Shown: positions 9,336 to 45,231 of the stretch, one piece after another
Layout of the letters: each line of letters opens with the position of its first letter
How positions within the stretch are numbered: position 1 is the stretch's first letter
Source of the DNA: Thainema sp.
GTDB taxonomy: Bacteria > Cyanobacteriota > Cyanobacteriia > Phormidesmidales > Phormidesmidaceae
Direction of reading: 5' to 3'
DNA: 64,000 nucleotides
Assembly (NCBI GenBank): GCA_052168235.1
Contig: JBQLZK010000001.1
Location: forward strand, 96,001-160,000
Notes under the pieces: generated by a model
What the model saw: only the letters and a program-made list of their open reading frames with translations
What the model was told of the DNA's origin: nothing
The model's database searches: none
Translations under genes and position numbers: made by a program

Positions 9336-9446
9336 CTCATATCAAGTCCGTGTGTGAGAACCCATTGTTTATTTTTTATGAAATGCTGGCTAAGCCAGCA
9401 TTTCATAAAAAATAAACAATGGGTTTTTAACCGGATTTCATATCAG
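9336..9446. mobile_element. TIR-flanked long-palindrome miniature element (32-bp arms, TAA loop)
   Basis: TIR ctcatatcaagtccg / cggatttcatatcag; perfect arms 9359-9390 and 9394-9425; core ggc-taa-gcc. Confidence 0.75.
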
Positions 9447-9881
9447 TCACTGATTCGCTAATTGACAGAAAAAACTCGTGTTAATCAAGGTGCGCTCTCT
9501 GAATATCAACTTGAGTTGCCATTAATCCAGCTTGCTCGCCTGATCAACATCCTTGATCCGTGAAACGACTAGTAGAGTACCCAAAATGATTCCATTAATT
9601 ATATCCGCGATCAACCGTTGTCTGGGTTGGTAGGTCTGCTGGGTGAAACGTCATCTCTTAAGGCTTTAGGAAAAGCAGCCAAAAGAAATTAGCTTGACGG
9701 TTATGCTCAAAGCCGCTGCCGCTGCAACCCATTAGGCCGAAGTCGAATTTCATCACAGAGTAATGGCTATGAAAGATTGCGTGCGTGGACAATTTGGCAT
9801 CAACAGTGACAAAGTCCAAGCCGTTGGCTACCAGAAAAAAGATGCGATCGCACTTTTCTTTGATGCAATCCCACCACTCAT

Positions 9882-10754
9882 TCAATTAATCTTCAGCAAA
9901 TCAGTTGCCGCCGCGTATTCCGCTGCCGTTAGTGGTTCTTCCCGTAGTTCAATACCAAACTCGGCTTGAGCAGCAGTCGCCAATGATTCGATTAATTCTG
10001 AAATAGAAACTCCAAACCGCTCAACACCCAAACATTGTCCTGAACTTAGCGATGATTCTTCGAGCCTCTCGCCTCTCGCCTCTCGCCTCACCATCAATTC
10101 GGTGCGTTGCGCTTCGCTTAACGGCACCCTACGATCTTCTTCGTCAAAGCCTTTACCGTCCTCTACAGCCCTCTCCCCCTCACTCATCATTGAGAATACC
10201 TCTTCCAACAGCCCCACATCTTGCTGCACCCGAATCGAGCCATGCTGTAGAATGCCCTGTCGTCGTCGGAGTTGAGCGCTGCCAATTAGTTTTTCTCCAG
10301 TCGGTAAGACTAAATCCGCTGCGGTTGCCGTGCCGAAACAGTCAGGATTGTGAATATAGCCCCGTCCGGCTTCGCCAAATTGGAGAGAGAGATTGTGCGA
10401 TCGCAATCCTGTAATCAAAAATTGACAGAGATAGCGGTAAACCTCCATCCGCGATCCAAGCAAGTTAGAGGTAATTACCGCATAGGTTAAATCGCCTTGA
10501 TGCAGAACCGCTCGTCCGCCAGTCGGTCGTCGCACCAAGTCAATTAGCTGGCCTTGCCAGGTGAGATGCTGCCAGTGTTCTGGCCATGACCGTTGATGAT
10601 AACCCAGTGAAATTGCCGCAGGTGACCAGGTATAGAACCGCAGCACGCTCGGCATTTTGCCCGCCAAATGCTGCTCCAAAAGCCACGCATCAATTGCCAT
10701 CTGTACCGCACCCGGAGCGTCGATCAGCGGTATCAAACGCCAAATATTCGCCAT
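9882..10754 (-). CDS. Lipoate--protein ligase / octanoyltransferase family protein with a repeat-derived insertion
   Basis: QMAID, LRFYTW, VRRPTGGRAVLH, KLIGSAQ, LQHGSI. Confidence 0.9.
   Translation of the reverse strand: MANIWRLIPLIDAPGAVQMAIDAWLLEQHLAGKMPSVLRFYTWSPAAISLGYHQRSWPEHWQHLTWQGQLIDLVRRPTGGRAVLHQGDLTYAVITSNLLGSRMEVYRYLCQFLITGLRSHNLSLQFGEAGRGYIHNPDCFGTATAADLVLPTGEKLIGSAQLRRRQGILQHGSIRVQQDVGLLEEVFSMMSEGERAVEDGKGFDEEDRRVPLSEAQRTELMVRREARGERLEESSLSSGQCLGVERFGVSISELIESLATAAQAEFGIELREEPLTAAEYAAATDLLKIN
10101..10132 (-). repeat. GTAG-type REP hairpin embedded in frame in the lipoate ligase CDS
   Basis: Minus strand gtagggtgccgttaagcgaagcgcaacgcacc; adjacent to (gcctctc)x3 heptamers at 10064-10089. 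Confidence 0.65.
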
Positions 10755-10773
10755 CAATCACCCCAAACACACC

Positions 10774-10827
10774 GTAGGGGCGTTAGCGTAGCCATACCCG
10801 AAGGGTTATATGGCCATTCGCCCCTAC
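10774..10827. repeat. GTAG REP interrupted by a 26-nt insert
   Basis: gtaggggcg[ttagcgtagccatacccgaagggtta]tatggccattcgcccctac; compare the intact copy at 3652. Confidence 0.75.
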
Positions 10828-10901
10828 GTAAAATTGAAAGACACCAAACTAAATTTATTCCTATGAATTGTGGATTGAATAGCCTATAAATCGTTCCATC
10901 C

Positions 10902-10930
10902 GTAGGGACACGGCATTGCCGTATCCCTAC
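10902..10930. repeat. GTAG-type REP palindrome
   Basis: gtagggacacggca-t-tgccgtatccctac. Confidence 0.8.
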
Positions 10931-10961
10931 CCAAGGATTCCAACTTATTAAATCTGCGTTT

Positions 10962-11435
10962 CTATACGTTGCCGTATTCCTGCTGGAGCGGTTCATCGAC
11001 ATCATCGGCAATGGTAGCCACGATAGTCATAATCCGCGAGGTTTCAGCCGGAGTCAGTTCCTCCAGCGTCCGGCTCGATACCACCACAACTTCATTACCA
11101 ATGATGGCAAACCGAGCTTCAAACGTCTCCGACCAGTTCATCTTGAGTAGCTTTTGCATGAGCTGCGCTTCGTTCTTTGCGGGCAAATTTAGCACAGGTG
11201 CCCAAACGGTTAACGTATCCTCGTCCTCGGTGCCGGAAAGCTGCACCATCACCTCAACCGTGCCGTACTTGAACTTCCATAGATACTGATCGTTGGCATG
11301 GCTGACCATTGCCGTTTGGTCAGTTTCCAGGCTGGAGATCACCGTTTCAATCACTTCAATGTGATTGGCGGCGGTATCCTCTTCAAACTCTTCAGTCATC
11401 GTGGGCACCGATTCAAGACTAGATTGGTAAGTCAT
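10962..11435 (-). CDS. YbjN domain-containing protein
   Basis: WKFKYGTVEVMVQLSG...LMQKLLKMNWSETFEARFAI...VATIADDVDEPL, typical cyanobacterial YbjN-like sequence. Confidence 0.75.
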   Translation of the reverse strand: MTYQSSLESVPTMTEEFEEDTAANHIEVIETVISSLETDQTAMVSHANDQYLWKFKYGTVEVMVQLSGTEDEDTLTVWAPVLNLPAKNEAQLMQKLLKMNWSETFEARFAIIGNEVVVVSSRTLEELTPAETSRIMTIVATIADDVDEPLQQEYGNV

Positions 11436-11529
11436 AAGGAATGAACAAGAGACGTACGCTATCTCAACTCTACAATCTAAAAAAAGCGATTACCGGATCT
11501 AGAACGCAGTTCTTTATAAATCCTTTTCT

Positions 11530-11624
11530 CTTACATCTTGCACGTTGAGAGCCTGAAGAGGTTATTTTGCCGCCGCGATGCGGCGGCAAAATAACCTCTT
11601 CAGGGTTTTGGTGCAAAATATGAG
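11530..11624. mobile_element. TIR-flanked long-palindrome miniature element (25-bp arms, GAT loop)
   Basis: TIR cttacatcttgcac / gtgcaaaatatgag (11/14); perfect arms 11552-11576 and 11580-11604. Confidence 0.75.
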
Positions 11625-11731
11625 TTTCTTCGATATTTGCCTAAATCCTACTTGGTTCGGTATTTTCGCTTTGAGTGCTGCCCATTATCAGACACAATTA
11701 AACACGAGAGTTAAATCCGTTAGGAAAGATC

Positions 11732-13447: not shown

Positions 13448-13449
13448 TC

Positions 13450-13498
13450 TTTAATCAAAAAAGCGGGATGGCAGCGCCACCCCGCTTTTTTGATTAAA
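13450..13498. terminator. Bidirectional terminator-like palindrome between ftsY and the aminotransferase
   Basis: tttaatcaaaaaagcggg-a-tggc-agc-gcca-c-cccgcttttttgattaaa; A/T tracts on both sides. Confidence 0.85.
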
Positions 13499-18465: not shown

Positions 18466-18555
18466 TAGACTTTATCGGAAATTGTTTTGTAGCGCGGCGA
18501 AGCCGCGCTACAAAACAATTTCCAACCCCAAAAATTTTATTTCCAATAAAGTCTA
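18466..18555. mobile_element. TIR-flanked long-palindrome miniature element (22-bp arms, GAA loop)
   Basis: TIR tagactttatcggaaat / atttccaataaagtcta (16/17); perfect arms 18477-18498 and 18502-18523; core ggc-gaa-gcc. Confidence 0.8.
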
Positions 18556-18633: not shown

Positions 18634-18676
18634 TGAAAATAGGGTGGAATTGTTGAACAATTCCACCCTATTTTCA
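18634..18676. repeat. Perfect 21-bp-arm palindrome between convergent genes; possible bidirectional terminator
   Basis: tgaaaatagggtggaattgtt-g-aacaattccaccctattttca. Confidence 0.75.
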
Positions 18677-19521: not shown

Positions 19522-20222
19522 GTCTGCGGAGTACCTTAGTGTTTTGGAGTTCAATCATCGTTGAATTTATTCTCGGCAGAATGACCAATCGAAACCATCG
19601 TTGTTTTACGGGACTCTCACCCCTCATTTCGGCCTGATTCAGAGGAAACACGTATAATTTCGGAAAACCGCACTCAAACTGCTTAACATTTCGCAACAAT
19701 TGAAGTAGCAAAAGCATAATATCGTTAAGCAAATAGCTGCTAGTTATTGCTTACAATCCTTATTTCGCAAGGCTTTCACGCATCATCCATCGGATTTGAG
19801 TCGAAGCGCTAAAGACGAGCCGACCTTTTCCTTTTGCTTTGGGAAATTTGGGAAAGCGACTTGTGCTAGTTGGGTGACCTGTCTGGATAACCCTATAGTG
19901 CCCGCATAAACTGTTAAAATCGCGACCAAAATTGCGATTGTGTCGTGCCGCAGCTTCTAAGGTTAAGCCAGATCTTAGACGTAGCTCTCAATAGGGTTGT
20001 TCGTTCTCCTAGCGGCTTAGATGGTGACGCAGGATTAAAAAACGAATTAGACGGATTTAAGCTTGATGAGGAGAAGGTTATGTTTTGTTTAGGCGTAACC
20101 TAGTGGTCTTAAAGATTAACGTTCTGATCAAGTGTTGTTGAACAGAAAATAGCAAGTCCTTAATATTTCCATGAAAACCTAACAGGTGTTGTCTAAGAGT
20201 GCATAGCACAAACACCTCAGTT

Positions 20223-23200
20223 ATGGCCACTTTAAACGGATTTGCGTCATTGCCCGCCGATACATTTGCCGATGGGCCACCGTCGGGTACCGATAATGGA
20301 GCAATCGATGCGATCGCACGTATCCAGCCTGTGTCGGGTAACGGTCGCACTGGCCCCTTTGACGGTCAGCCCGTGCAGGGATTTAGCGGTGTGCAGTTTG
20401 CCCCCAGCGGTACGGGCGATACGTTCTGGTTCCTGTCGGATAACGGTTTTGGCAATGAAGCTAACAGCACCGACTACCTGCTGCGGATTTATCAGGCTGC
20501 TCCCAGCTTCAGCGGTAACGGTGGGGACGGCAGCGTTGAAATTGAGGGCTTCGTCCAGCTCAGCGATCCAAACGGCCTGATTCCGTTTGAGATTCAAAAC
20601 GGCGATACCTCCGAGCGGCTGCTCACGGGTACGGATTTCGATATTGAATCGTTTGTGATTGATGGCAACGGCGATATTTGGGTCGGTGACGAGTTCGGCC
20701 CCTTCATCCTGCACTTCAACAGCAGCGGTGAACTACTGGCAGCACCAATTCCCACGCCCAATCCGGTTGAGTTGAATACCCTGAATAGCCAAGATCCGCT
20801 CGTCATCGGCCACCGGGGGGCCAGCGGTGATTTTCCAGAGCATACGTTAGAGGCATACCGAGCCGCGATCGCAGCTGGGGCTGATTTTGTTGAACCTGAC
20901 TTGGTGATCACCAGTGATGGAGTGCTAATTGCCCGCCACGAGCCGCTCCTGGACGACACCACCAACGTTGCCGAGGTGTTTGGCCCGGAGCGGATGTCCA
21001 CTAAAATGCTGGACGGAGTAGAAGTCACGGCCTACTTTGCCGAAGATTTTACTCTAGAGGAAATCAAGAAGCTACGAGCCGTACAGTCCCGCGATGGCCG
21101 CGATCCAGCCTTTGACGGGCTGTTTGAGATTCCGACGTTCCAAGAAGTAATTGAGCTGGTGCAGCAGGTGGAAGCTGAAACGGGCGTCCAGGTTGGTATC
21201 TACCCGGAAACCAAGCACCCCACCTTCTTTGATCAGCAGGGGCTGTCGCTGGAAGAGCCGCTGATTGAAACGCTACAGGCAACGAGCTTCACTGACCCCA
21301 ACCGCATCTTCATTCAGTCCTTTGAGTTCCAAAACCTGATTGAGCTACAGGGCATGCTGGATGCAGAGGGTTTGGGCGATATTCCGCTGGTGCAGCTCTA
21401 TGGCAGCACGCTACCGGATGCGCCCGTGGATGATGGGTTCTCGGCTCCCTACGACATTCGCTTCAACGTTGAGCAAGGTAACGACCTGGAGGCCATCTAC
21501 AGCGCGGATTTCCTGGCAGCAGCGAAAAATCCACTATCGACCACAACGGTTTACAGCGATCTCGATAGCCCAGAATTCCTGCAGGTGATCAGCGATCTCT
21601 ATGCCGAAGGTGCTGGCCCCTGGAAAAACAACATTTTGCTGCGCGAGAGCCTGGATACGCCTGTCGATGGCAATGGCGATGGCGTGGCTGAAATCACGAC
21701 GCAGCTGACGGGCGAGATTACCTCATTCATTGACGATGCCCATGCCGCTGGGCTGCAGGTGCATCCCTACACGCTGCGGGATGAAGAGCCGTTCCTGACG
21801 CTGAATCCGGACGGCACGCCGCAAACCCCAGAACAGGAGTTTGAGCAGCTGATCGAGATTGGGGCGGACGGCTTCTTTACCGACTTTCCTCGCACGGGTG
21901 ATCCGGTGCGCGATCGCATTGTTGCCGATGAAGTCCGCTCTCCCCAAAATCCGGACTTTGACTTCAATACGCTCAACGGTCAAACGCCGCTGGTCATTGC
22001 CCACCGGGGTGCCAGCGGTGACTTTCCAGAGCACACCCTGGAAGCCTATCGCCTGGCGATTTACCAGGGAGCCGACTTCGTTGAGCCAGATTTAGTGATC
22101 ACAAAGGATGGGGTGCTAATTGCCCGCCACGAGCCGCTCCTGGACGACACCACCAACGTTGCCGAGGTGTTCGGCCCGGAGCGGATGTCCACCAAGATTC
22201 TAGACGGTGAAGCAGTTACCGCTTACTTTGCCGAAGACTTCACGCTGGCTGAAATCAAGCAGTTGCGAGCTGTGCAGCCTCGTTCCAATCGGAATCAGGA
22301 GTTCAATGGTGAGTTCGAAATTCCCACCTTTGCCGAAGTCATCCAACTGGTGCAAGAGGTCAGCGCGGCAGTGGGTCGCAACATCGGCATCTACCCCGAA
22401 ACCAAGCATCCCACCTTCTTTGATGAGCAGGGGCTATCGCTGGAAGAGCCGCTGGTGCAAACGCTGCTTGATACCGGATTCACTAATCGCGATCGCATTT
22501 TTATCCAGTCGTTTGAAGTCGCTAATCTGATTGAGTTACGCAATGAGCTTCTGCCTGCGGCGGGACTGGATGATCTGCAACTGGTGCAGCTTTTCGGCGA
22601 TATCGAAGATACGTCGATTAACGCAGGTGGCGGCGGGTTTTCAGTTCCGTATGACTTTGTCGCCAATGCGGGCAAGTCTGAAACCGAACTGCGCCAGATC
22701 TACGGTGACTTAGTAGATCTGATTGATTTCTCCGCCGCTCCTACCTATCAGGATCTGGCTAATCAAGCAGTCATTGACTTTATTAGTTCCTACGCCGAAG
22801 GTCTTGGCCCCTGGAAAAACAGCATCCTGCTGCGGGAACCGTTGGCGACTCCAGTGGACGGCGACGGCGATGGCGTCGCTGAGATCACCACGCAGCTCAC
22901 GGGTGAAATCTTTCCGCTGATTGACTTTGCCCACAATGCCGGATTACAGGTGCATCCCTACACGCTGCGGGATGAAGAGCAGTTTCTGACACTGGATGCA
23001 GACGGCAATCCCCAAACCACAGGCGATGAGTTCCGACAGCTCATTGAAATTGGCGCAGACGGCTTCTTTACCGATTTTCCAGAAACCGGACGAATCGTTC
23101 TAGAACAGTACGAGACGGCAGAAGAGTTTGCCAACCTCGGCGGTTCGCGCGGCTACGAAGGCATGGCGTTTAGCCCCGATCGGCTGACGCTCTACCCCAT

Positions 23201-24248
23201 GCTGGAAGGTACCGTCTTTGGCGATCCAGTCGGCTCATTACGGATCTATGAGTTTGATGTCACCACCCGTTCATTCGTTGACATCGTCGGTCTCTACCAG
23301 ATGGAGGCCACAAACCACGCCATTGGAGACTTTACGCCGATCAACGAGAATGAATATCTGGTGATTGAGCGGGATAATAATCAGGGTGCAGGCGCGGAGT
23401 TCAAGAAAATCTTCAAGGTCGATCTGTCTCAGGTGGATGAAGACGGGTTCGTCGAGAAAACCGAAGTGGTTGATCTGCTCAGCATTGCTGACCCCAATGA
23501 CCTGAATGGCGATGGTGACACCACGTTTACCTTCCCCTTCGTCACGATTGAAGACGTGCTGGTAATTGACGAAAGCACCATTTTGGTGGCGAACGATAAT
23601 AACTATCCGTTTTCTATCGGTCGCGATTTCTCTGGTCAGGAAATTGACAACAACGAGATTATTCTAATTGGTCTCGATAACCCGCTGGATCTGGATTTGC
23701 GGCTGGGATCAGCATCCCTCACGCGGGACATCACTCAGGGATCGCGCGAGGCCGATATCCTAGCAGGCGGCACTGATGGCGATGACGTCATGTTTGGCAG
23801 CGATGGCGACGATATCCTGCGCGGTGACCTCAATTCATCGAACTCTCAAAATGGCATTGGCGACAATGACACCATCTTTGGCGAAGGCGGCAACGACAGG
23901 ATCGGCGGCAAAGGCGGTAACGACTCGCTGTTTGGCGGTGAAGGCAATGACAAGATCTGGGGCGATGATGGCGATGACCTACTGCACGGTGGTCTCGGCA
24001 GCGATCGCTTAATGGGTGATTCTGCCGGAGGCCACGGTAGCGACACCTTCGTCCTCGCCTTAGGTGAAGGCACAGACCGAATTGTAGACTTTGAAGTGGG
24101 CACGGACTTCATCGGTTTGGCGGATGGTCTAGAGTTTGGCGTACTGTCCTTTGCTGGAAACGCCATTTTAGCGGGTAGCGAAACGCTAGCTATCCTGAAT
24201 GGCGTAAATACCACAACCCTGAGTGAACTATCATTCGTGGTGGTTTAG
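20223..24248 (+). CDS. Secreted multidomain protein: phytase-like/esterase-like propeller with two nested glycerophosphodiester phosphodiesterase domains + RTX tail
   Basis: Two HRGASG...PEHTLEAY...EPDLV...YPETKHP units; QPVQGFSG, LSDNG, DEFGP, GYEGMA, NDNN propeller motifs; GGxGxD repeats. Confidence 0.88.
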   Translation: MATLNGFASLPADTFADGPPSGTDNGAIDAIARIQPVSGNGRTGPFDGQPVQGFSGVQFAPSGTGDTFWFLSDNGFGNEANSTDYLLRIYQAAPSFSGNGGDGSVEIEGFVQLSDPNGLIPFEIQNGDTSERLLTGTDFDIESFVIDGNGDIWVGDEFGPFILHFNSSGELLAAPIPTPNPVELNTLNSQDPLVIGHRGASGDFPEHTLEAYRAAIAAGADFVEPDLVITSDGVLIARHEPLLDDTTNVAEVFGPERMSTKMLDGVEVTAYFAEDFTLEEIKKLRAVQSRDGRDPAFDGLFEIPTFQEVIELVQQVEAETGVQVGIYPETKHPTFFDQQGLSLEEPLIETLQATSFTDPNRIFIQSFEFQNLIELQGMLDAEGLGDIPLVQLYGSTLPDAPVDDGFSAPYDIRFNVEQGNDLEAIYSADFLAAAKNPLSTTTVYSDLDSPEFLQVISDLYAEGAGPWKNNILLRESLDTPVDGNGDGVAEITTQLTGEITSFIDDAHAAGLQVHPYTLRDEEPFLTLNPDGTPQTPEQEFEQLIEIGADGFFTDFPRTGDPVRDRIVADEVRSPQNPDFDFNTLNGQTPLVIAHRGASGDFPEHTLEAYRLAIYQGADFVEPDLVITKDGVLIARHEPLLDDTTNVAEVFGPERMSTKILDGEAVTAYFAEDFTLAEIKQLRAVQPRSNRNQEFNGEFEIPTFAEVIQLVQEVSAAVGRNIGIYPETKHPTFFDEQGLSLEEPLVQTLLDTGFTNRDRIFIQSFEVANLIELRNELLPAAGLDDLQLVQLFGDIEDTSINAGGGGFSVPYDFVANAGKSETELRQIYGDLVDLIDFSAAPTYQDLANQAVIDFISSYAEGLGPWKNSILLREPLATPVDGDGDGVAEITTQLTGEIFPLIDFAHNAGLQVHPYTLRDEEQFLTLDADGNPQTTGDEFRQLIEIGADGFFTDFPETGRIVLEQYETAEEFANLGGSRGYEGMAFSPDRLTLYPMLEGTVFGDPVGSLRIYEFDVTTRSFVDIVGLYQMEATNHAIGDFTPINENEYLVIERDNNQGAGAEFKKIFKVDLSQVDEDGFVEKTEVVDLLSIADPNDLNGDGDTTFTFPFVTIEDVLVIDESTILVANDNNYPFSIGRDFSGQEIDNNEIILIGLDNPLDLDLRLGSASLTRDITQGSREADILAGGTDGDDVMFGSDGDDILRGDLNSSNSQNGIGDNDTIFGEGGNDRIGGKGGNDSLFGGEGNDKIWGDDGDDLLHGGLGSDRLMGDSAGGHGSDTFVLALGEGTDRIVDFEVGTDFIGLADGLEFGVLSFAGNAILAGSETLAILNGVNTTTLSELSFVVV

Positions 24249-24314
24249 GATTTGCCTAAACTGCTGAGATCAAGACGTTGATCACCAATTCATAAACTCG
24301 CAATACGATTCTGG

Positions 24315-24342
24315 GGGGCACGGCGACGCCGTGCCCCTGTAC
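24315..24342. repeat. REP-like GC-rich hairpin
   Basis: ggggcacggcg-a-cgccgtgcccc followed by tgtac; resembles the REP at 10902. Confidence 0.65.
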
Positions 24343-24347
24343 TTTAT

Positions 24348-24457
24348 CTCATACCGAACTCGACTAGAAAAAAGCCGAATTATTTTTTGTGAAAGTCAGG
24401 TTATGCCTGACTTTCACAAAAAATAAAGGCTGGATTTATGAGCAAATTTTGTATCAG
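24348..24457. mobile_element. TIR-flanked long-palindrome miniature element (21-bp arms)
   Basis: Degenerate TIR ctcataccgaactcg / caaattttgtatcag (10/15); perfect arms 24380-24400 and 24406-24426. Confidence 0.6.
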
Positions 24458-24492
24458 TCGTTCAATTCTAAAATTCAAGACATAATGTCTGA

Positions 24493-24533
24493 ATAAACCA
24501 GCCTTTAACTTCAACGACTCTAGTCTTTAACTT
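24493..24533 (+). promoter_or_regulatory. Candidate Pho box (SphR/PhoB)
   Basis: ataaacca (24493), tttaactt (24504), tttaactt (24526): YTTAAYYW-like units in 11-bp register upstream of a phytase gene. Confidence 0.55.
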
Positions 24534-24643
24534 GAGCTGATATTGTCGTCTGCGGAGTGGAAACACCGAATCATCCAGTATTTTTCCTCACACCGAATAG
24601 GTTAAGTGTTTCTCCCTGATAAACGACATGTGAGCCCCTTCCT

Positions 24644-27600
24644 ATGACTGGTGAAATCCGTTTTGCAAGCTTCAATGCCTCTCTCAATCGTTCCAGTGCT
24701 GGCCAGTTAATTGACGACTTATCCACACCGAATAATGCTCAAGCTCAAGCCGTTGCTGAGATTATTCAACGCACTAATCCAGATGTGCTGCTGATTAACG
24801 AGTTTGACTACGACGAGAACGGCGAGGCAGCTGATTTATTTCGAAAAAATTATTTAGCAGTCAGCCAAAACGGTGTTGACCCGGTTGAATATCCTTACGT
24901 CTACATTGCACCTTCTAATACAGGCATTCCTTCGGGCTTTGATCTCAATAATGACGGCACAGTTGGTGGCCCGGATGATGCGTTTGGCTTTGGCTTTTTC
25001 CCTGGCCAGTTTGGTATGGTGGTTTACTCCAAGTACCCAATTGATGAAGCCAATGTGCGGACGTTTCAGAACTTTTTGTGGAAAGACATGCCAGGGGCGC
25101 TGCTGCCCGCCGATCCGGCAGATGTAGATGACAACGGCGATACGGCTAACTGGTATACCCCAGAGGAATTAGAAGCAGTTCGCCTCTCATCTAAAAGCCA
25201 CTGGGATATTCCAATTCAAGTCAATGGCGAAACCATTCACGTTCTGGCTAGTCATCCCACTCCGCCTGTATTCGATGGGCCAGAAGATCGCAACGGGACA
25301 CGCAACTTTGACGAGATTCGATTTTGGGCAGACTACATTGACGGAGCCAACTATATCTACGATGATGCCGGAAACTTCGGTGGTTTAGACTCCAATGCTC
25401 GCTTCGTTGTCATGGGCGATCAAAACTTCGATCCGTTTGATGGCGATAGCATTCTCGGTGCAATTCAGCAGCTTTTAGAAAATCCCCGCGTCAATACGAC
25501 GGTCACGCCGTCCAGCCTTGGTGGGCCAGATGCTACCAAGAGGCAGGGCAGCAATAACCTCAGTCATCTCAGCGATCCGGCTTACGACACGGCAGACTTT
25601 GGTGAAGCGGAGTTTGGTGGCCCTGGCAATTTGCGAGTTGACTATGTGTTGCCGTCCAATAACCTGGATATCGCTGAAGCATCGGTGTTCTGGCCAGAAG
25701 CAGGCGGTGAGAACTTTGATTTAGTAGGGGATTTCCCCTTTCCCAGTTCTGATCACCGATTGGTTTACGCTGATGTTGCGATCGCACGTCCTGGTTCTAA
25801 CCAAGATCGGGTTTCAGTAGATGGGGTTGAGTTTCTGGGTGAAGTCACCTTTGCGACGGGCACTGAGCTGAATGACACTGAAATTGGTGGACTGTCGGGG
25901 CTGACCTATGATGCAGCTCAGGGTGTGTACTATGCGCTATCGGATGACCGCAGTTCTGATGCTCGCTTCTATACGCTGGAGATTGATCTGAGTGACGGTA
26001 GCCTGGATGAGGGAGATATCGAGTTTGTAAGCGTAGCTCAACTTGCCGATGCAGCAGGCAATCCATTTGCTGATGGCACGTTAGATCCAGAAGGAATTGC
26101 GCTGACGGGAATTGGTACGCTCTACATCTCGTCTGAAGGAGATGCCAGCCAACTGATTGATCCATTTGTCAATCAGTTCTCGATTACCGGACAGCAGATC
26201 AGCGAGCTGCCCGTACCCGACACCTATTTACCGACTGCGGATCAGACCAGCGGCATTCGCAACAACCTGGCGTTTGAAAGCTTGACCATCACACCGGATC
26301 AGCGTTTCCTCTATACGGCTACTGAAAATGCGCTGTTTCAGGATGGCTCCGAGGCAACACTCGACACAGGCAGCCTCAGCCGCATTCTCAAATATGACCT
26401 CACCACTGGGGAACCTGTGGCCGAGTTTGTCTATGAAGTTGATGCCGTGCCCGATGTGCCCGTTTCGGCTGACGGCTTTACGACCAATGGCCTGGTTGAA
26501 TTACTCGCAATCGACAATAACGGCACCCTGCTAGCGCTGGAGCGCGGCTTTTCGGTTGGGGTTGGTAACACGGTCAAGCTCTATCAGGTGAACACCCAGG
26601 GGGCGCTGAATGTCCTGGATACCCCGGATCTGTTCCGGGAAGACTCTGTGGAAGACGATGGTGAAATTTTGCCGCCAGGGCCGTTTGAAGTTGATCCAGC
26701 TGTAACCAAGGTCGAACTGCTGGACATTGAAGCAGACTTAGGGATTGAGCCGGACAACATTGAGGGCATGACCTTGGGGCCTGTTTTACCCGATGGTCGC
26801 CAGTCTCTCATTTTGGTCAGCGACAACAACTTGAGTGATGCTCAAACGACCCAGTTTATTACTCTAGCTCTGGACTTGGAGACCACACCAGCGGCACAGC
26901 CAGTGGTTGAAACGCCGCTGACGGTTGACGATGAGGACGGTGCGACGCCGCTTCAAGGCGACTCCGACGATCCAGCGATTTGGGTGCATCCCACTGATCC
27001 CGCTCAAAGTGTGGTGCTGGCTACGCTGAAAGATGGTGGCTTGGTCAGCTTCGACCTAGAGAGCAATATCCTCGATACCTTTCGCCCCGATAACTATGGC
27101 GATATTCGCTATAACAATGTCGATTTGGTTTACGGCCTGGAGCGCCCGTCGATGCTGGGCGGCACAACGCCCGTTGATGTTGCTGTCATTAGCGATCGCG
27201 CCAATGATACGCTCGTTGTGCTGCAAATTGATCTGGAAACGGGAGATCTGACCGATGTTACTGCTCCCGATATGCTGGAAACCATCTTCGGCGTAGACGA
27301 TGGTGAAACGACGGCCTATGGCTTAGCGACCTATACCAGCCCAGTGACCGGAACGTCCTATGCGTTTGTCACTCAGGCCAGTGGTAACCAGGTTGCTCAG
27401 CTTGAACTGGTATCCTATCTAGGGCCAGCAGATCAGTTCTATGTCCGAGCCGAAGTAGTGCGGATGATTGATTTGCCTGTGCCAACAGGTGATCCAGTTG
27501 ATTCCCAGTCCGAAGGTTTAGTCGTTGATCAGGAAATGGGACTGCTGTACGTGGCCCTGGAAAACGAGATCGGCATCCTCAAATTTTTGGCTGAACCCGA

Positions 27601-28621: not shown

Positions 28622-28682
28622 CCAGTTGCTCAAAATCAGCAATCCCAAAATTCCCATCAGTCAACCGAAAAATCAGCATCCA

Positions 28683-28737
28683 TAAAAAGAAAGATACGGT
28701 TGAGAAAAACATTCCTCAATCGCACCTTTCTTTTTTA
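28683..28737 (+). terminator. Intrinsic terminator
   Basis: aaaaagaaagatacggttgag...ctcaatcgcacctttctttttt. Confidence 0.6.
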
Positions 28738-28772
28738 TTTGTCGACATTTATATTTTCGATAGCACCTTTAT

Positions 28773-28801
28773 TTTAACTTCATTTAACCTCAGCTTCACC
28801 T
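28773..28801 (+). promoter_or_regulatory. Candidate Pho box
   Basis: tttaactt, tttaacct, cttcacct direct repeats at 10-11 bp spacing. Confidence 0.5.
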
Positions 28802-28883
28802 TGATCAGGCAAACTCAAATTGTTGTGAATAAGCATGACGATCTAATTACTTCTGCACTGTTCTAACTGCTACTTTCTTACCG

Positions 28884-29429
28884 ATGGCTCTAGATAGATT
28901 TCCAATTTTCTGCTTAAGTCAGATATTTTGTCGTCAAATATTGAAAGCGATCGCAACAACAATCTTGGTGTATTGTTTGGCAGGAGGATATCAGCCAGCT
29001 AGGGCGCAGACAGATAGCATCACACTTGAAATTCCGGTTGATGGACAGGTTCCATACCACGATTTAATGAACCAGGCTGAGTTTCTATCAACGAATGCAA
29101 TCAGCCGCGAGTTTAGCCGAGACAACAGTCTTATGACAATCGAGGTCGTCGTTCTCGGTAATCGGCTCGGTGAAATTATTCCAATTCTGTCAACTACGGT
29201 TTCTCGCAACCAGTGGCAAGAAACTCCACAAGCGAGTACTTGGAGTCAGTACTATAACGCTTCCTATGCGCTGTTTCAGCGCCATGATCTTGGAGTAAAT
29301 GCAACCATAGCTCAGGCACCTAGCAGATCCGATATTTCAAATATTAGCGCTGTTCAGATTGACCGTGCTCTTGATGAAAGGCGGTTAACAGGAGAACAGG
29401 CGCAGCAATATTTGGATGACTTAGATTAG
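28884..29429 (+). CDS. Hypothetical exported protein
   Basis: 181-aa ORF with a signal-peptide-like segment ending ARA. Confidence 0.65.
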   Translation: MALDRFPIFCLSQIFCRQILKAIATTILVYCLAGGYQPARAQTDSITLEIPVDGQVPYHDLMNQAEFLSTNAISREFSRDNSLMTIEVVVLGNRLGEIIPILSTTVSRNQWQETPQASTWSQYYNASYALFQRHDLGVNATIAQAPSRSDISNISAVQIDRALDERRLTGEQAQQYLDDLD

Positions 29430-29634
29430 CTAATATCAAGCCTAATCAATAATTGGGAGTGAGATATATCGTTGCTCCCAGTCACTTAAAAGCTTTTCTA
29501 GTTTAGATATGCAGATTTAGGGTTTAGTAAAACCTAAATTCTGATCGATTTTTTCAATAGTATCGAGCTAGAAAAGATGCGATTTCCGTTTGCTGTTATT
29601 TATAACCAAGGCAATATTTGAGAGGAGAACATCA

Positions 29635-31533
29635 GTGATTCATGACGACGGTATTAGTAACAAGTCGGGCAATCGTCCATTTGAGGACGTTCTGCGAGTT
29701 CGGATGTCCCGACGCAATGTATTGGTGCGCGGAGCAGCCCTATCAGCCACTGGCTTTTTAGCGGCGTTGGCCGGTAACAAAGCATTGGTTGGGCGAGCAG
29801 TTGCGGCAACCAATGCTTCTGAATCGAGTACTGTTATCGGTAGTGGGATTGGTAGTGGTACCCAAATTGCCCAGAACAGCAGCCTGATTAATTTCCCGTT
29901 TGTGCCTCCTGCTGAGAGTGCTGGTGCTGTACCGGCTATTTCGACAGATTATCAATACGAGGTGCTGATTCCCTGGGGTACCCCAATTCAGCCCGGTGGT
30001 CCGAGCTACGATGGTGAACCCAATACCCGTCCCACTGCCAATGAACAAACGGAAATGGTGGGGATTGGTCATGACGGCATGTGGTTCTTCCCGATCGACG
30101 ACAGCAACGACCACGGCATGTTAGCCATCAACCACGAATTTGGAACAAACGACCATGTTTTAGGCAAGGCAGAGCCAGATAGTTTGGCAGATGTGCGGCT
30201 TTCCCAGCATGCTCACGGCGTTGCGGTGGTGGAGATCAAGAAAGTCAACGGTAGCTGGCAAAACGTCCAGAGCAGCAATGCCCGCCGCATTCATGTCAAC
30301 ACTCCAGTCACCTTCAGTGGGCCTGCTGCTGGTAGCGATCTACTCAAGACTGCTGCAGGCAATAGTCCTCTAGGGACAGTTAACAATTGTGCTAACGGGT
30401 ACACTCCTTGGGGAACATACCTCACCTGTGAGGAGAATTTCAACGGCTACTTTGGAGCCTCCGGGGACTGGACTCCCACGCCAGCTCAAGAACGCTATGG
30501 TTTCAGCGCTGATGGGTTTGGTTACGGCTGGCATCTGTTCGACTCTCGCTTTGACCTGTCCAATCCTGATTATGTCAACGAAGAAAATCGCTTTGGCTGG
30601 GTTGTTGAGATTGATCCGATGAATGGTTCTCAAACTCCGGTGAAGCGAACCGCTCTAGGCCGATTCAAGCATGAAGGGGTCGCATTCGCTGTGGGCCGAG
30701 GTGGTCGGGCCGTCTGCTATATGGGAGACGACGAGCGCTTTGACTATATCTATAAGTTTGTGTCAGACAGCAATTGGCGCTCCATGCAGGCACGGGGTAT
30801 CAGCCCGTTGGATCGCGGCAAGCTCTATGTTGCTAAGTTTAATGACAATGGCACTGGCGACTGGCTAGAACTCACCGTTGATAATCCAGTTCTAAAAGCT
30901 CAATTCGCCGATCAGGCTGAGATACTGACCTACGCCCGACTGGCAGCAGATGCTCTGGGTGCTACGCCGATGGATCGTCCGGAGTGGACGACGCTGGCAC
31001 CGACAGGTGAAATTTACTGCACCCTGACGAATAACTCTCAACGCCAGGTCGCGGATGCCGCTAATCCTTTGGCACCCAATCCCGATGGTCACATTATCCG
31101 GTTCAAAGATAGCAATCAGCATGTCGGTACTACCTTTACCTGGGACATCTTTGTATTAGCTCAGGACACCTTTAATGATGAAGCCGGTGCCTTTGCTAGC
31201 CCTGATGGTCTCTGGGCTGACCCTGATGGCCGCCTGTTCATCGAAACCGATGGTGGGCAACCAACGGTCAACGGGGTAACGCTTAACGACCAAATGCTGG
31301 TAGCTGACACCAATACGGGTGAGATTCGGCGCATGTTTGCTGGGGTGACAGATTGCGAAATAACCGGAGTCGCAGTGACCCCCAATCGCCGCACCATGTT
31401 CATTAACATCCAGCATCCCGGTAACGGCGACCCTACAGCCACTAACTTCCCTGCGGCCCAGGGCAGTGGCCGGATTCCACGAGATTGCACCATTGTTGTC
31501 ACCAAGAAAGATGGTGGTGTGATTGGCTCCTAG
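29635..31533 (+). CDS. phoX: PhoX-family alkaline phosphatase (Tat-exported)
   Basis: SRRNVL twin-arginine; NNCANG, TPWGTYLTCEEN, GRFKHE, MDRPE, NIQHPG; GTG start after GAGGAG. Confidence 0.92.
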   Translation: MIHDDGISNKSGNRPFEDVLRVRMSRRNVLVRGAALSATGFLAALAGNKALVGRAVAATNASESSTVIGSGIGSGTQIAQNSSLINFPFVPPAESAGAVPAISTDYQYEVLIPWGTPIQPGGPSYDGEPNTRPTANEQTEMVGIGHDGMWFFPIDDSNDHGMLAINHEFGTNDHVLGKAEPDSLADVRLSQHAHGVAVVEIKKVNGSWQNVQSSNARRIHVNTPVTFSGPAAGSDLLKTAAGNSPLGTVNNCANGYTPWGTYLTCEENFNGYFGASGDWTPTPAQERYGFSADGFGYGWHLFDSRFDLSNPDYVNEENRFGWVVEIDPMNGSQTPVKRTALGRFKHEGVAFAVGRGGRAVCYMGDDERFDYIYKFVSDSNWRSMQARGISPLDRGKLYVAKFNDNGTGDWLELTVDNPVLKAQFADQAEILTYARLAADALGATPMDRPEWTTLAPTGEIYCTLTNNSQRQVADAANPLAPNPDGHIIRFKDSNQHVGTTFTWDIFVLAQDTFNDEAGAFASPDGLWADPDGRLFIETDGGQPTVNGVTLNDQMLVADTNTGEIRRMFAGVTDCEITGVAVTPNRRTMFINIQHPGNGDPTATNFPAAQGSGRIPRDCTIVVTKKDGGVIGS

Positions 31534-34227: not shown

Positions 34228-34298
34228 AATTCAGCTTCCTGCTTCCCGCTTGAAAAGCCTGATTAATAGCCGTTTCCTAAAATTCAGCTTCCTGCTTC
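34227..34298. repeat. 19-bp direct repeat duplicating the pstS 3' end
   Basis: aaattcagcttcctgcttc at 34227 and 34280. Confidence 0.8.
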
Positions 34299-35386
34299 AG
34301 CAGTTCTTCAATCGTCAGATCAAAGCGAGCCTCGCCCTCAAAGACGGTGCCCACTTTGCGGTTTTTCAAGTGCTCATGTGCGATCGCATGAGCCTCTTCC
34401 GGCAGCGCCGTGTATCCTACCACTGGAATCAGATAACGAGCGTTCGTCAGGTAATAATCTACAAATGCCTCTAGTTCAGGCTTTTGCTCCAGCGCATCGA
34501 CACTGACATAGATAAACAAAGGCCGGGTCAGCGGCTGGTACTCCCCACTGCTCACCGTTTCGTCTGATGGTGGCACTGGCCCATTGCCGTTGTCGATACT
34601 GAGCGCCTTCAAAGCCGTTTGGCTCTCTTCGTAGTAGGCATAGCCAAAATATCCCAGGCTGTTTGGATCGGTACGAACACCCCGCACCAATTCGGTATCG
34701 TCTTCGCTGGCGGTGTAATCGGTGCGGCTCGCTCCGGATTCACCCATAATGGCCTCAGTGAAGTAGTCAAACGTTCCCGAATCTTGATCTGCACCATAGA
34801 GGTTAATTGGCTCATCCGGCCAGTCTGGGCGAATCTGATTCCAGCGGCTAATCTGCCCTTCTGCTGCTGGTTCCCACAGCATCTTCAACTCATCAACGGT
34901 GATGTCCTCAGCCCAGTCGTTGTCGGGATGAACCGCAATGGTCAAGGCATCAAAGGCCACTGGCAACTCGATATATTCCACACCAGCATCCTTACAGGCA
35001 GCCATCTCATCTTTGGTAATCGGGCGAGATGCCCCGTTAATATCGGTTTCTCCCGCACAGAATTTGCGAAAGCCACCCGTCGTACCAGAGAACGCCACGT
35101 CGATTGAAGGAGCAGCCTCCGCCTTTTCAAACTGATATTCCTTCGCCACTTCATCCGAAATTGGATAGACCGTACTCGATCCATCAATTGCGATCGCAGT
35201 TGGTGATGATACCTCTGCCAATTCAGGCTGAGTAGATTCAGTTGATTCAATTGAAGCGGAACAGCCAACAGTTGTCAGCAATAAACTTAAGGCCATCACG
35301 CAGCGACGTTTCTGAAATATTGCCCATTGTGGAACCGATAATTGCGGCGTAGATGATTGGGGAGCTGGTGAAAGCATAGCCATCAT
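34277..35386 (-). CDS. pstS: Phosphate ABC transporter substrate-binding protein
   Basis: IDGSSTVYPI, SGTTGGF, DSGTFDYF, YQPLTRPLFIYV; lipobox TVGC. Confidence 0.9.
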   Translation of the reverse strand: MMAMLSPAPQSSTPQLSVPQWAIFQKRRCVMALSLLLTTVGCSASIESTESTQPELAEVSSPTAIAIDGSSTVYPISDEVAKEYQFEKAEAAPSIDVAFSGTTGGFRKFCAGETDINGASRPITKDEMAACKDAGVEYIELPVAFDALTIAVHPDNDWAEDITVDELKMLWEPAAEGQISRWNQIRPDWPDEPINLYGADQDSGTFDYFTEAIMGESGASRTDYTASEDDTELVRGVRTDPNSLGYFGYAYYEESQTALKALSIDNGNGPVPPSDETVSSGEYQPLTRPLFIYVSVDALEQKPELEAFVDYYLTNARYLIPVVGYTALPEEAHAIAHEHLKNRKVGTVFEGEARFDLTIEELLKQEAEF

Positions 35387-41779: not shown

Positions 41780-41786
41780 ATAGCTA

Positions 41787-41847
41787 AAAACCGAGCGAAT
41801 AGGCAAAAGGCAGGCTGAGCCTGCCTTTTGCCTATTCGCTCGGTTTT
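41787..41847. repeat. Perfect 29-bp-arm palindrome just after prfB (terminator position)
   Basis: aaaaccgagcgaataggcaaaaggcaggc-tga-gcctgccttttgcctattcgctcggtttt. Confidence 0.9.
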
Positions 41848-44262: not shown

Positions 44263-44405
44263 ATGCCAGTTCTAGGGAATAGCGCTATAGATGAGGTACT
44301 GGGTTTTGGGCTTTAGGTGCTGAGTGCTGAGGAGTAATTTTCACCCATAACCCAGGGAAGCGGCATAATTCTCTCTCGTTGCAGTGTGATTGCAATTAAC
44401 AAGCC

Positions 44406-44450
44406 CCAGAACCGTTTTAGCTTAACCGCTAAAACGGTTCTGGAGTTTTT
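44406..44450 (+). terminator. Terminator-like hairpin
   Basis: ccagaaccgttttagc-ttaacc-gctaaaacggttctgg + agttttt. Confidence 0.6.
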
Positions 44451-44643
44451 AAGCTGAGTTGAGGCTGAATTGCGTCTGGGGAATTTAAAGTTCTTACTTA
44501 GGGGACAGGATAATGGGAAGCCAGTTCGTTAGCCTGATTGAAAGCAGTAGTTCTCGGCTGATTTGATTTGACTAATAGAATTGCTCAAATTAGCTATCTC
44601 TGCCACTTTGTTTTTATATCTGCCAATAATTAACCGTATTAAT

Positions 44644-44892
44644 ATGTCCCAGACTCGACCTTTAACTGGAACGGATTTAGTTGATTGCGCTAAAGCCAAT
44701 GCCGCTCAAGGCACCGATGTCGCTGCATCTCGCTGTGGCTATGACGATATTGATTCATTCATGAGCGCACTGCGTCAAGCGGCTGGAGAAATGGGAGTTG
44801 AACTCACGAATCTCAACGATCTGGTTTCAGATGGTGGCACGATTCAGCGCGGCGGAGTTGAGATTTCACCCGATGGGCCAGGACAGCTATAA
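44644..44892 (+). CDS. Small conserved hypothetical protein
   Basis: LTGTDLVDCAKANA...CGY pattern; followed by a terminator. Confidence 0.7.
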   Translation: MSQTRPLTGTDLVDCAKANAAQGTDVAASRCGYDDIDSFMSALRQAAGEMGVELTNLNDLVSDGGTIQRGGVEISPDGPGQL

Positions 44893-44941
44893 GCATCGCT
44901 GTAAGTACTGCTGTTTTGATCAAAATTTTAAAACTCGGGTA

Positions 44942-44974
44942 AGGGGTTTGTCAGCAGACAAACCCCTGTTTTTT
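44942..44974 (+). terminator. Intrinsic terminator
   Basis: aggggtttgtc-agca-gacaaacccct-gtttttt. Confidence 0.85.
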
Positions 44975-44979
44975 GCGAA

Positions 44980-45088
44980 CTAGTGCTTTGTCAAGTGTGT
45001 TTTGAGGGGTAGAAGAATTTTGAAAATATTGCGGAGCAATATTTTCAAAATTCTTCTACCCCTCATCTTTACTTTGACAGACTACTAG
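44980..45088. mobile_element. TIR-flanked long-palindrome miniature element (30-bp arms, GGA loop)
   Basis: TIR ctagtgctttgtcaa / ttgacagactactag (12/15); perfect arms 45003-45032 and 45036-45065. Confidence 0.8.
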
Positions 45089-45138
45089 GACAGGGCGGAG
45101 AAAAGTCAGGCGACTTTATTTCCTTCAGCATCAGCACC

Positions 45139-45231
45139 TATAGTGATTCCAGTTAAGAGTGAGAGAATGAGAGATAAGAGTGCCTCAGGATGAGGCACTC
45201 TTATCTCTCATTCTTATCTAGAACCGCTATA
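45139..45231. mobile_element. TIR-flanked long-palindrome miniature element (24-bp arms, GGA loop)
   Basis: TIR tatagtgattccag / ctagaaccgctata (11/14); perfect arms 45164-45187 and 45191-45214. Confidence 0.75.

Follow-up and report, generated by a model that had tools for sequence, protein, structure and literature searches.

Several described systems resemble the elements analysed here. Nezha of Anabaena and Nostoc is said to be an example of a bacterial MITE, a miniature transposable element with inverted repeats. REP/REPIN elements have neither terminal inverted repeats (TIRs) nor target duplications and are built from two inverted REP units. Heterocystous cyanobacteria reportedly carry very small mobile repeats, the SDRs, which Elhai and co-workers are said to have described in 2008 as a 21-27-nt unit nested in many sequence contexts. 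For non-coding DNA of the chloroplast, Kelchner and Wendel reportedly described in 1996 that hairpin loops undergo small inversions. The Ripley model is said to be one of quasipalindrome-associated template-switch mutation. In the relevant sections of Monttinen & Loytynoja (2022, PMC8794818), template switching is described as recognisable by homogenised arms, compensatory change of several bases, insertion into a stem half and an inverted loop. For proteobacteria, the summary parts of Lavi et al. (2018, PMC5941160) propose that template switching preferentially turns imperfect inverted repeats into perfect ones, and a yeast study of inverted repeats, in the portion used here, deals with quasipalindrome-associated template switching (PMC8604942). 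The published bacterial cases, as presented in these portions, concern rRNA stems and the short inverted repeats of E. coli and related bacteria.

The six elements of this study are best read as MITE copies whose arms stay matched after insertion, most likely by template switching within the palindrome, at an unusual scale; we give this reading a probability of roughly 0.68. As in the chloroplast, their loops can take either orientation within a fixed stem and fixed flanks, but the chloroplast case is organellar and usually has longer loops, whereas here loops of 1-5 nt are combined with arm homogenisation. As regards the SDRs, the palindromes here are each seen with their own MITE ends. The likeness to bacterial MITEs, as these appear in parts of two reviews (PMC10969869, PMC3184786), extends from small size and lack of coding capacity to TIRs and target duplications, and further to numerous intergenic copies, a candidate parent insertion sequence (IS) with a shared TIR and a stable predicted fold. 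What sets the present elements apart is that several unrelated families each have a long perfect central palindrome, distinct from the TIRs. REPINs with their RAYT transposases, within the text of Bertels & Rainey (2011, PMC3116915) that was drawn on, differ in that the present elements have TIRs and target duplications and that the pattern reaches single-copy hairpins. A literature search found no description of in-place concerted palindrome evolution in a cyanobacterial MITE. Template-switch mutation is a known process; the present case differs in its scale, its MITE setting and arms that evolve at about the rate of the flanks.

The DNA under study, hereafter the window, is a stretch of 64,000 nucleotides of Thainema sp. 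(GCA_052168235.1, contig JBQLZK010000001.1, positions 96,001 to 160,000). The source genome, a draft in 205 contigs, is designated G000, and a sister species of the same genus G001. The original prediction placed in this window six elements with imperfect TIRs around a perfect inner palindrome, and all six are present, on the plus strand, with arms that are 100% complementary in the inverted-repeat listing of the window. E1 (9336-9446, 111 bp) has arms of 33 nt at 9359-9391 and 9393-9425 with 1 nt between them, effectively a TAA loop. E2 (11530-11624, 95 bp) has arms of 25 nt at 11552-11576 and 11580-11604 around a GAT loop; 7 nt near its left end that are present in most family members are missing from this copy. 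In E3 (18466-18555, 90 bp), arms of 22 nt at 18477-18498 and 18502-18523 enclose GAA, and in E4 (24348-24457, 110 bp), arms of 21 nt at 24380-24400 and 24406-24426 enclose a 5-nt loop. E5 (44980-45088, 109 bp; arms of 30 nt at 45003-45032 and 45036-45065) and E6 (45139-45231, 93 bp; arms of 24 nt at 45164-45187 and 45191-45214) both have a GGA loop. These limits are real, since BLAST coverage climbs and drops at the same coordinates when an element is searched together with flanks of 60 nt. The ssDNA folding energies calculated for the elements lie between -23.6 and -37.9 kcal/mol (z-scores -6.7 to -13.1), and none of 200 shuffles gave an equally good fold; a base shuffle of 890 kb held no hairpin with arms of at least 14 nt. 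The 36 large ORFs scanned in the window include no transposase, as had been stated. It had also been claimed that the arms are unrelated and the TIRs of different types, with a CTCATA start shared only by E1 and E4. The arms do differ between families, but E1 and E4 proved to be related in both arms and ends by BLAST cross-matches.

Four further hairpins in the window share the build of the elements, but have no TIRs, are single-copy and carry no strand assignment. The hairpin at 13450-13498 (arms of 23 nt, 1 mismatch) lies between convergent genes for an FtsY-like protein and an aminotransferase, and its G001 ortholog shows both-arm changes. The other three are perfect palindromes: 18634-18676 (arms of 21 nt) is downstream of a sigma-factor gene, 41787-41847 (arms of 30 nt, with an A-run and a T-run at the base) is right after a release-factor gene, and 63667-63709 (arms of 21 nt) is between two minus-strand genes.

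Each of the six is a full-length member of an ordinary dispersed MITE family whose copies are small, non-coding and sharply bounded at shared positions. The source genome has 124 loci of the E1 family (79 full length), 77 of E2 (45), 103 of E3 (93), 45 of E4 (14), 17 of E5 (12) and 60 of E6 (56); the E4 family is an old one, related to E1. Among the first 17 TIR positions, 16 match in E3, 13 in E6, 12 each in E1 and E5, 11 in E2 and 10 in E4; random windows of equal size reach 12 or more matches with P = 0.0004. The family consensus carries the same TIRs as the window copies. The mismatches had been taken for decay, but they sit in the consensus and are common to nearly all copies, which makes them an inherited design. 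A similar correction applies to the asymmetry at 18466, where one arm overlaps a TIR and the other does not. It had been interpreted as a trace of copying, but it is present in 93/93 full-length E3 copies and therefore tells of the founder element, not of the window copy.

Mobility is evident from the insertion sites. A 3-bp ANT target duplication flanks 78/93 E3 copies, and a 5-bp duplication of variable sequence was seen in 21/50 of the E2 copies in which both TIRs were located. For E1, TGA was seen at an empty site, while the constant flanking bases of E4-E6 are indistinguishable from TIR when scored for target duplication. The check for empty sites that had been proposed gave a positive answer: the sites of three E1-family insertions of G001 (L017, L029 and L039) are clean and uninterrupted in G000, and the alignment is less clean for two others (L035 and L028). 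A contig of 1024 bp (C179) opens with the E3 TIR at 17/17 nt and encodes a protein with HTH_Tnp_4 and DDE_Tnp_4 domains; judged by these sequence features, it is likely the parent IS of E3, of the IS5 family, with the qualification that the IS5-family model score is below the cut-off and that only one IS end is seen on the contig. No parent IS for E1, E2, E4, E5 or E6 was found in the draft assembly.

The key test set by the original prediction was whether arm sequences vary among copies that share their TIRs while the two arms of each copy remain complementary, and this was the case. For the count within families, each combination of a copy and a stem pair was treated as a cell, with the expectation derived from non-arm divergence. 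In E3 (93 copies x 22 pairs), with a non-arm divergence of 3.65%, about 149 mismatch cells would be expected and 30 are present; cells changed in both arms (compensated) number 23, against 0.9 expected, and represent 15 distinct variants. Perfect arms were found in 68/93 E3 copies (18.7 expected) and in 8/12 E5 copies (0.3 expected). In E1, with 20% non-arm divergence, there are 218 compensated cells against 35 expected and 255 mismatch cells against 1031 expected. One E6 copy has a 3-nt deletion in one arm and its counterpart in the other. G:T and A:C mismatches are near parity (67/82 in E1, 45/55 in E2, 17/12 in E3 and 17/22 in E4), so that no signature of RNA wobble is seen.

The comparison with the sister species revealed that such changes occur in place. 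When 772 G000 hairpins with arms of at least 16 nt were compared with 720 kb of G001, matches to both flanks were obtained for 71 and an alignment for 69; a strict homology filter then retained 20 and rejected 49/69. These 20 orthologous hairpins contain 419 stem pairs, of which 314 are the same, 50 compensated, 42 one-sided, 5 double mismatches and 8 gaps, whereas independence predicts 4.7 compensated and 126 one-sided pairs. Because the G000 hairpins were selected as perfect, unresolved G000 mismatches were removed and the ratio of compensated to one-sided pairs is inflated, but the contrast of 50 to 4.7 is unaffected. Divergence per site is 18.1% in the arms and 18.3% in the flanks, a yardstick that consists partly of gene ends and is thus only approximately a neutral rate. 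The one-sided differences sit at the stem ends, both loop-proximal and distal; at positions 4-15, 31 pairs are compensated and 12 one-sided. As a single sister genome was compared, with no outgroup, the both-arm changes are unpolarised, and single multi-base events look like accumulated ones. The E1 window copy differs from its G001 ortholog (L011) by one both-arm change, a flip of the loop between TTA and TAA and a 2-nt insertion, which lengthens its perfect arm to 33 nt, and at another orthologous site (C4:41803) a C/G was inserted in both arms. The idea that the palindrome is corrected after insertion is upheld by these differences. Some copies escape this maintenance, such as the G000 ortholog of L016, which has decayed to about 4 arm mismatches.

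The loops behave in a corresponding manner. Relative to fixed asymmetric flanks, 3-nt loops were found in both orientations at similar frequency: 31 GGA and 22 TCC, and 14 TTC and 11 GAA, in E3; 23 GGA and 18 TCC in E6; 26 GAT and 11 ATC in E2. Even 18 E3 copies that are identical at all other positions have the loops TTC (8), GAA (3), GGA (3), TGA (2) and TCC (2). Exact loop inversions were also observed at orthologous sites of G000 and G001, namely TGC/GCA with identical arms, TC/GA, CA/TG and, twice, TTA/TAA. GNA loops closed by C-G had been emphasised in the original prediction; the GNA loop turned out to be limited to the large families (5/103 cluster representatives), but the 5'-C...G-3' closing pair is general (82/103) and strongly preferred (384/444).

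Among the origins that had been suggested, template-switch synthesis is the best fit to the arm homogenisation, the loop flips and the matched indels, and we infer it as the cause from the pattern of the differences. Non-coding MITEs of 90-111 bp would be moved by DDE transposases encoded elsewhere, and the founder of each family would already have had its palindrome. Once inserted, the arms do not evolve independently of each other: what changes in one is erased or copied onto its partner, indels are copied across likewise, and the few unpaired loop bases are inverted again and again. The nascent strand may fold back or cross strands at the quasi-palindrome, copy the opposite arm and return, which would homogenise the arms, could lengthen them and would invert the spacer. 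The TIRs would escape homogenisation because asymmetric spacers separate them. The process is not specific to MITEs, as single-copy, partly terminator-like hairpins behave alike. Quasipalindrome template switching shares with these data the both-arm changes that look like one step, the loop inversion that keeps the length, the extension of stem halves and the conversion of imperfect repeats into perfect ones; it differs from them in that a single genome here has hundreds of perfect hairpins of 20-40 bp, most of them in MITE families, and in that arm and flank rates are about equal. A stable hairpin is probably also favoured by selection, as nearly all hairpins are intergenic, T-rich tails occur and loop-adjacent mismatches are cheap. 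In the multi-copy families, ectopic conversion or transposition-coupled events could be another source of both-arm differences and flips.

Selection alone is an unlikely explanation. It would act on a functional hairpin, which could serve in RNA as terminator or stabiliser or be needed as ssDNA by the host or the element, and point mutations would be followed by selected compensation. The intergenic placement suits this idea, with 38/567 hairpin centres inside ORFs of at least 150 aa though such ORFs cover 80% of the genome, as do the T-rich tails on 59/163 singleton hairpins (2.2% background), the T-run after the outer stem of E1 and E2, the preferred closing pairs and the tolerance of mismatches chiefly beside the loop, their least costly place. 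For REPINs, too, the part of that study concerned (PMC3116915) reports that compensatory change affecting the two sides of a predicted hairpin is common. However, exact loop inversion and matched indels in both arms are not predicted by selection, and G:T intermediates are not in excess over A:C. Compensatory-evolution theory predicts rates well below neutral, whereas the arms diverge about as much as the flanks and both-arm changes are about 10 times the independent expectation. It is more doubtful still that the changes in the arms and the flips originate in exchange between copies, by ectopic gene conversion, which palindromic arms permit in either orientation, or in regeneration of the palindrome at each transposition copying. 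The families are mobile now or were formerly, GCTGGC/GCCAGC and GCTTGC/GCAAGC are frequent alleles within the E1 family, and the young, otherwise identical E3 copies carry both loop orientations. Against this, 15/20 orthologous hairpins are single-copy, with no other genome match of at least 15 nt, and yet they show 41 compensated changes (and 38 one-sided ones, rows summed by hand) and several loop flips, and 11 of the 15 compensated E3 variants occur in a single copy each.

A separate mobile hairpin system, of the REP/REPIN-RAYT type or of very small repeats, might insert ready-made palindromes into MITEs, as had also been suggested, but this is very improbable. A long central palindrome is found in about 12/21 dispersed intergenic repeat families, the hairpin tips are similar across families, and the genome has two Y1_Tnp matches, one an IS200/IS605 TnpA (132 bits) and the other inside an odd Type_ISP_C protein. 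These two are the only ones genome-wide, though, and the search for TnpA(REP) or HUH enzymes that had been recommended found no RAYT in the genome (for this TnpA the RAYT model, REP_Tyr_transpos, gives 35.6 bits against a cut-off of 80). Moreover, the palindromes travel with their own ends, the E3 BLAST coverage profile gives no sign of hairpin-only copies (93/103 loci are full length and 10/103 partial), the arms differ between families, and the single-copy hairpins show equal dynamics. That the palindromes are an artefact of short-read assembly is hardly credible, even for a draft of this fragmentation. G001 was assembled independently and has hairpins at the same sites and at a similar density, and the differences in arm sequence among copies are structured. 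Metagenome contigs, which at low depth are all that the public sequencing runs offered, pile up on the E3 bin to a depth of 15-31, against about 2-5 around it.

Template switching within palindromes most likely acts on hairpins throughout the source genome. Perfect hairpins with arms of 20 nt or more number 569 there, or about 7.5 per 100 kb; the density is 7.2 per 100 kb in G001, and the other six relatives sampled have 0-2 per 100 kb. A tentative extension, which we think possible but would not favour, is that templated correction in this genus is efficient enough to keep long hairpins without selection, so that arms drift neutrally yet remain perfect and loops scramble. If true, old MITE hairpins would outlive the traces of their MITEs as single-copy perfect palindromes, ready-made terminator-like hairpins, and the roughly 4- to >7-fold excess in density over the sampled relatives would be a lineage-specific property of replication or repair. 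Exonuclease VII, which is reported to suppress template-switch events in E. coli and was considered in view of the hairpin richness, is present in the source genome. Compared with an intrinsic terminator, in which a G+C-rich stem at the 3' end of a gene leads straight into a T-run, several MITEs have A-runs behind their inner stems.

The six elements lie in the window at 9336–9446 (E1), 11530–11624 (E2), 18466–18555 (E3), 24348–24457 (E4), 44980–45088 (E5) and 45139–45231 (E6), as was confirmed by reading the sequence. An inverted-repeat listing of the window also bore out that the internal palindrome is perfect in all six, with arms of 33, 25, 22, 21, 30 and 24 nt, respectively, and a loop of 3 nt in five of the six and of 5 nt in the element at 24348. 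The element ends are imperfect inverted repeats, in which 10–16 of the first 17 positions match (P(≥12) = 0.0004). When folded as single-stranded DNA, the elements have energies from −23.6 to −37.9 kcal/mol, a stability not reached by any of 200 shuffles. Four single-copy hairpins of the same build, which carry no terminal repeats, are found at 13450–13498, 18634–18676, 41787–41847 and 63667–63709. The window's 36 large ORFs serve housekeeping and phosphate scavenging; none encodes a transposase, in agreement with the original observation.

The window belongs to contig C1, and the genome (7.54 Mb in 205 contigs, 50% G+C, 8,963 HIP1 octamers) has dispersed relatives of every element. When the elements were searched by BLAST with 60-nt flanks, coverage stepped up and down at the boundaries originally drawn. 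The E1 family has 124 loci (79 full-length copies), E2 has 77 (45), E3 has 103 (93), E4 has 45 (14), E5 has 17 (12) and E6 has 60 (56); the E1 and E4 families are mutually related. The terminal bases are constant in E1, E2 and E4–E6, which misled the automatic target-duplication finder in these families. E2 duplications were therefore counted after locating the terminal inverted repeats (TIRs), and a variable 5-bp flanking duplication was found in 21 of the 50 copies with both ends located. In the E3 family, a 3-bp ANT duplication flanks 78 of 93 copies. Three E1-family insertions in a sister species of the same genus (L017, L029 and L039) correspond to clean, uninterrupted sites in the Thainema genome, one of which has TGA on both sides; two further loci of this family in the sister species (L035 and L028) align less cleanly. 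A likely parent IS of E3 lies on contig C179 (1,024 bp), which starts with the 17-nt E3 end (17/17 nt) and encodes a 310-aa HTH_Tnp_4 + DDE_Tnp_4 protein, probably of the IS5/Harbinger type. It shares with the E3 MITE only the terminal sequence, not the palindrome. For the other five families, no convincing parent IS was found among paired TIRs 400–4000 bp apart in the draft genome, and at contig ends only the E3 TIR was seen. The elements are ordinary MITEs and not a new kind of system. The TIR mismatches had been taken for decay, which did not hold up: they are already present in each family consensus and are thus inherited, not worn. At two intergenic spots, the Thainema genome has a MITE of one family (E6 or E2) where the sister species has an E1-like one (C2:46649 against sister contig C4; C4:159933 against L019), which suggests insertion hot spots or replacement.

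Perfect hairpins are abundant beyond these families. With a minimum arm length of 14 nt and a loop limit of 8 nt, the genome has 938, and in 569 of these the arms reach 20 nt or more; 890 kb of shuffled sequence gave no hairpin at the 14-nt arm minimum. They form clusters of 161, 89, 44, 19, 18, 17 and fewer members, in addition to 163 singletons. They are intergenic, with 38 of 567 centres inside ORFs of at least 150 aa, which make up 80% of the DNA. Loops are odd-sized in 511 of 569 hairpins and in 120 of the 163 unclustered ones, and 384 of the 444 hairpins with a loop of 1 or 3 are closed by a 5'-C...G-3' pair. GNA loops are enriched through the big families only (5/103 with one representative per cluster). 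A palindrome-blind survey of dispersed intergenic repeats returned 21 families with at least eight intervals. The median best perfect arm was at least 14 nt in ten of them; in two others roughly half of the intervals have such arms, and the remaining nine have none. The single design that had been proposed is therefore common among dispersed families but not universal.

Hairpins whose arms reach 20 nt or more number 7.5 per 100 kb in the whole genome and 7.2 in 720 kb of the sister species. In small samples of other relatives the figure was 1.0 (G003, 100 kb), 2.0 (G026, 200 kb) and 0 (G005, 200 kb; G014, G021 and G024, 100 kb each). Absence of Exonuclease VII was considered as a reason for lineage-specific template switching and rejected, as the family is present both in this genome and in the sister species. 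It is present in 30 of the 31 genomes searched, missing only in the palindrome-poor G005, and no correlation was seen.

Alignment of copies with the same TIRs showed, as predicted, that the arms vary among copies yet remain internally complementary. In the E3 family (93 copies × 22 stem pairs), non-arm columns depart from the consensus at 3.65% per site. Counting each stem pair in each copy as one cell, independence of the arms would give about 149 mismatch cells, 0.9 complementary changes of both arms and 18.7 copies with perfect arms; 30, 23 and 68 were observed. The 23 both-arm changes represent 15 distinct variants, 11 of which are private to one copy. They are distributed along the stem; of the 30 mismatches, 25 are no more than 6 bp away from the loop. 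In E5, eight of 12 copies are perfect against 0.3 expected. In E1, an old family with 20% non-arm divergence, 218 compensated cells (both arms changed, pairing kept) stand against 35 expected and 255 mismatch cells against 1,031. G:T and A:C mismatches are about equal in the family alignments, so that nothing indicates one-strand RNA wobble tolerance. Individual copies also differ by deletion: one E5 copy (C91:12550–12634) has lost one arm and the loop, the two arms of an E6 copy (C30:31870) carry matching deletions of 3 nt, and those of a further E6 copy (C45:55999) carry deletions of unequal length.

The loops invert as well. Since the flanks are asymmetric, the copies can be oriented, and loop orientation was scored relative to the flanks. 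E3 loops read GGA in 31 copies and TCC in 22, TTC in 14 and GAA in 11; E6 loops read GGA in 23 and TCC in 18; E2 loops read GAT in 26 and ATC in 11. Among 18 E3 copies without any difference outside the loop, the loop reads TTC, GAA, GGA, TGA or TCC. At the right end of E3 there is a second hairpin (window 18531–18555) with 7-nt arms and a 5-nt loop, TTCCA, which is inverted to TGGAA in seven of 93 copies by manual count of alignment rows; short stems thus flip as well. A cyanobacterium of another family (G026, C1:1000001–1200000, L094–L103) carries a palindromic repeat of its own; the arms measure 21 nt, and the 3-nt loop is TAC, GTA or ATA depending on the copy, TAC and GTA being reverse complements.

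Orthologous sites were compared with the sister species, the closest genome compared, whose genes are about 86–94% identical. Between the element at 9336 and its ortholog, one stem pair has changed in both arms, the loop is flipped (TTA/TAA), and an insertion of 2 nt turns a bulged stem into the perfect arm of 33 nt. An E1 copy on C11 shows one both-arm change; another on C36 shows three together with an inverted loop, and its inner arms are free of one-sided changes; a fourth E1 ortholog is decayed in the Thainema genome. The site orthologous to E2 has other neighbours in the sister species. For a wider sample, 772 hairpins with a minimum arm length of 16 nt were compared with 720 kb of the sister genome. 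Both flanks were matched for 71, of which 69 were alignable and 20 remained after strict filtering for homology (arm identity ≥0.6, ≤2 gaps, ≤3 inserted columns). Of the 419 stem pairs, 314 are the same, 50 compensated, 42 one-sided (a single arm changed), five double mismatches and eight gaps. Independence at the flank divergence of 18.3% predicts 4.7 compensated and 126 one-sided pairs, figures to be read with the hairpins having been selected for being perfect in the Thainema genome, the flanks including some gene ends, and the comparison being with one sister genome and no outgroup. Arm divergence is 18.1% per site, which equals the flank level. Of the 20 hairpins, 15 are single-copy in the genome, and these account for 41 compensated and 38 one-sided differences (summed by hand). 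One-sided differences concentrate beside the loop and at the stem base; at stem positions 4–15 there are 31 compensated against 12 one-sided. Exact loop inversions include TGC/GCA (with identical arms), TC/GA and CA/TG, and at C4:41803 one arm differs by an extra C and the other by an extra G at corresponding positions.

Arm pairs that change jointly at close to the neutral rate, indels matched between arms, lengthening of arms and exact inversion of the loop are thus seen side by side, at single-copy sites and without wobble bias. They correspond to the footprints that have been published for short-range template switching at quasi-palindromes, which is the most likely mechanism. PMC8794818 lists multiple compensatory mutations, loop inversion and stem-half insertion as its footprints; PMC5941160 proposes preferential correction of imperfect to perfect inverted repeats, and PMC8604942 describes arm homogenisation with spacer inversion. 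Selection on hairpin stability probably acts as well, but alone it predicts neither the flips and matched indels nor arm divergence at the neutral rate. Ectopic conversion among copies, or events at the time of transposition, could add to the pattern within families, but would leave the single-copy hairpins unexplained. Support is lacking for a separate system that inserts hairpins: the search of the genome gave no RAYT, and the sole clear Y1 transposase in it is of the IS200/IS605 type.

Template switching as the maker and keeper of perfect stems is already published (PMC8794818, PMC5941160), and compensatory changes in mobile hairpins are noted for REPINs (PMC3116915). A literature search that covered few subscription journals turned up nothing on the concerted evolution of hairpins in cyanobacterial MITEs. 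The present case is a large and unusually clean example of a known mechanism. Its value lies in scale and cleanness, with hundreds of perfect hairpins, families of different ages and orthologous sites in a sister species. It provides a quantitative natural example of stem covariation and loop flipping that most likely come from a mutational process and not from structural selection, which is a caution against taking compensatory changes to prove that an RNA is functional. Template-switch rates could also be measured here in a bacterium other than E. coli.

Among public reads, four low-depth metagenome runs contain parts of the window (shares 0.20–0.47) in contigs of ~300–500 nt that break at MITE ends. 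One contig (X1, depth 4.8) has an A after 24397 and a T after 24407, a would-be matched insertion in both E4 arms. It was not counted as evidence because a single contig of depth below 5 may be in error and its orthology is uncheckable. Other indel rows (at 11597 and 9364) look like cross-mapping of paralogous copies and were also set aside.

Some further observations were made. A 706-aa ORF (C2:256629–258749; L080:520–2640, + strand) matches Type_ISP_C, the specificity domain of type ISP restriction enzymes, with E = 5.6e-92, and contains an IS200-like Y1_Tnp (HUH) domain at aa 328–426 (E = 2.2e-13), an unusual domain combination. At 3652–3679, the window holds a perfect palindrome of 14 + 14 nt with zero spacer, which starts with GTAG and ends with CTAC; units tagged in this way were seen repeatedly in the dispersed-repeat survey. 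It resembles GTAG-tagged REP elements (PMC3733652), although no RAYT was found in this genome. Three consecutive genes for large secreted-type phosphatases occupy window 20199–31533 (GDPD + phytase-like + RTX repeats; phytase + Exo_endo_phos + RTX; PhoX), and together with a PBP-like phosphate-binding gene at 34277–35386 they make up a phosphorus-scavenging neighbourhood.
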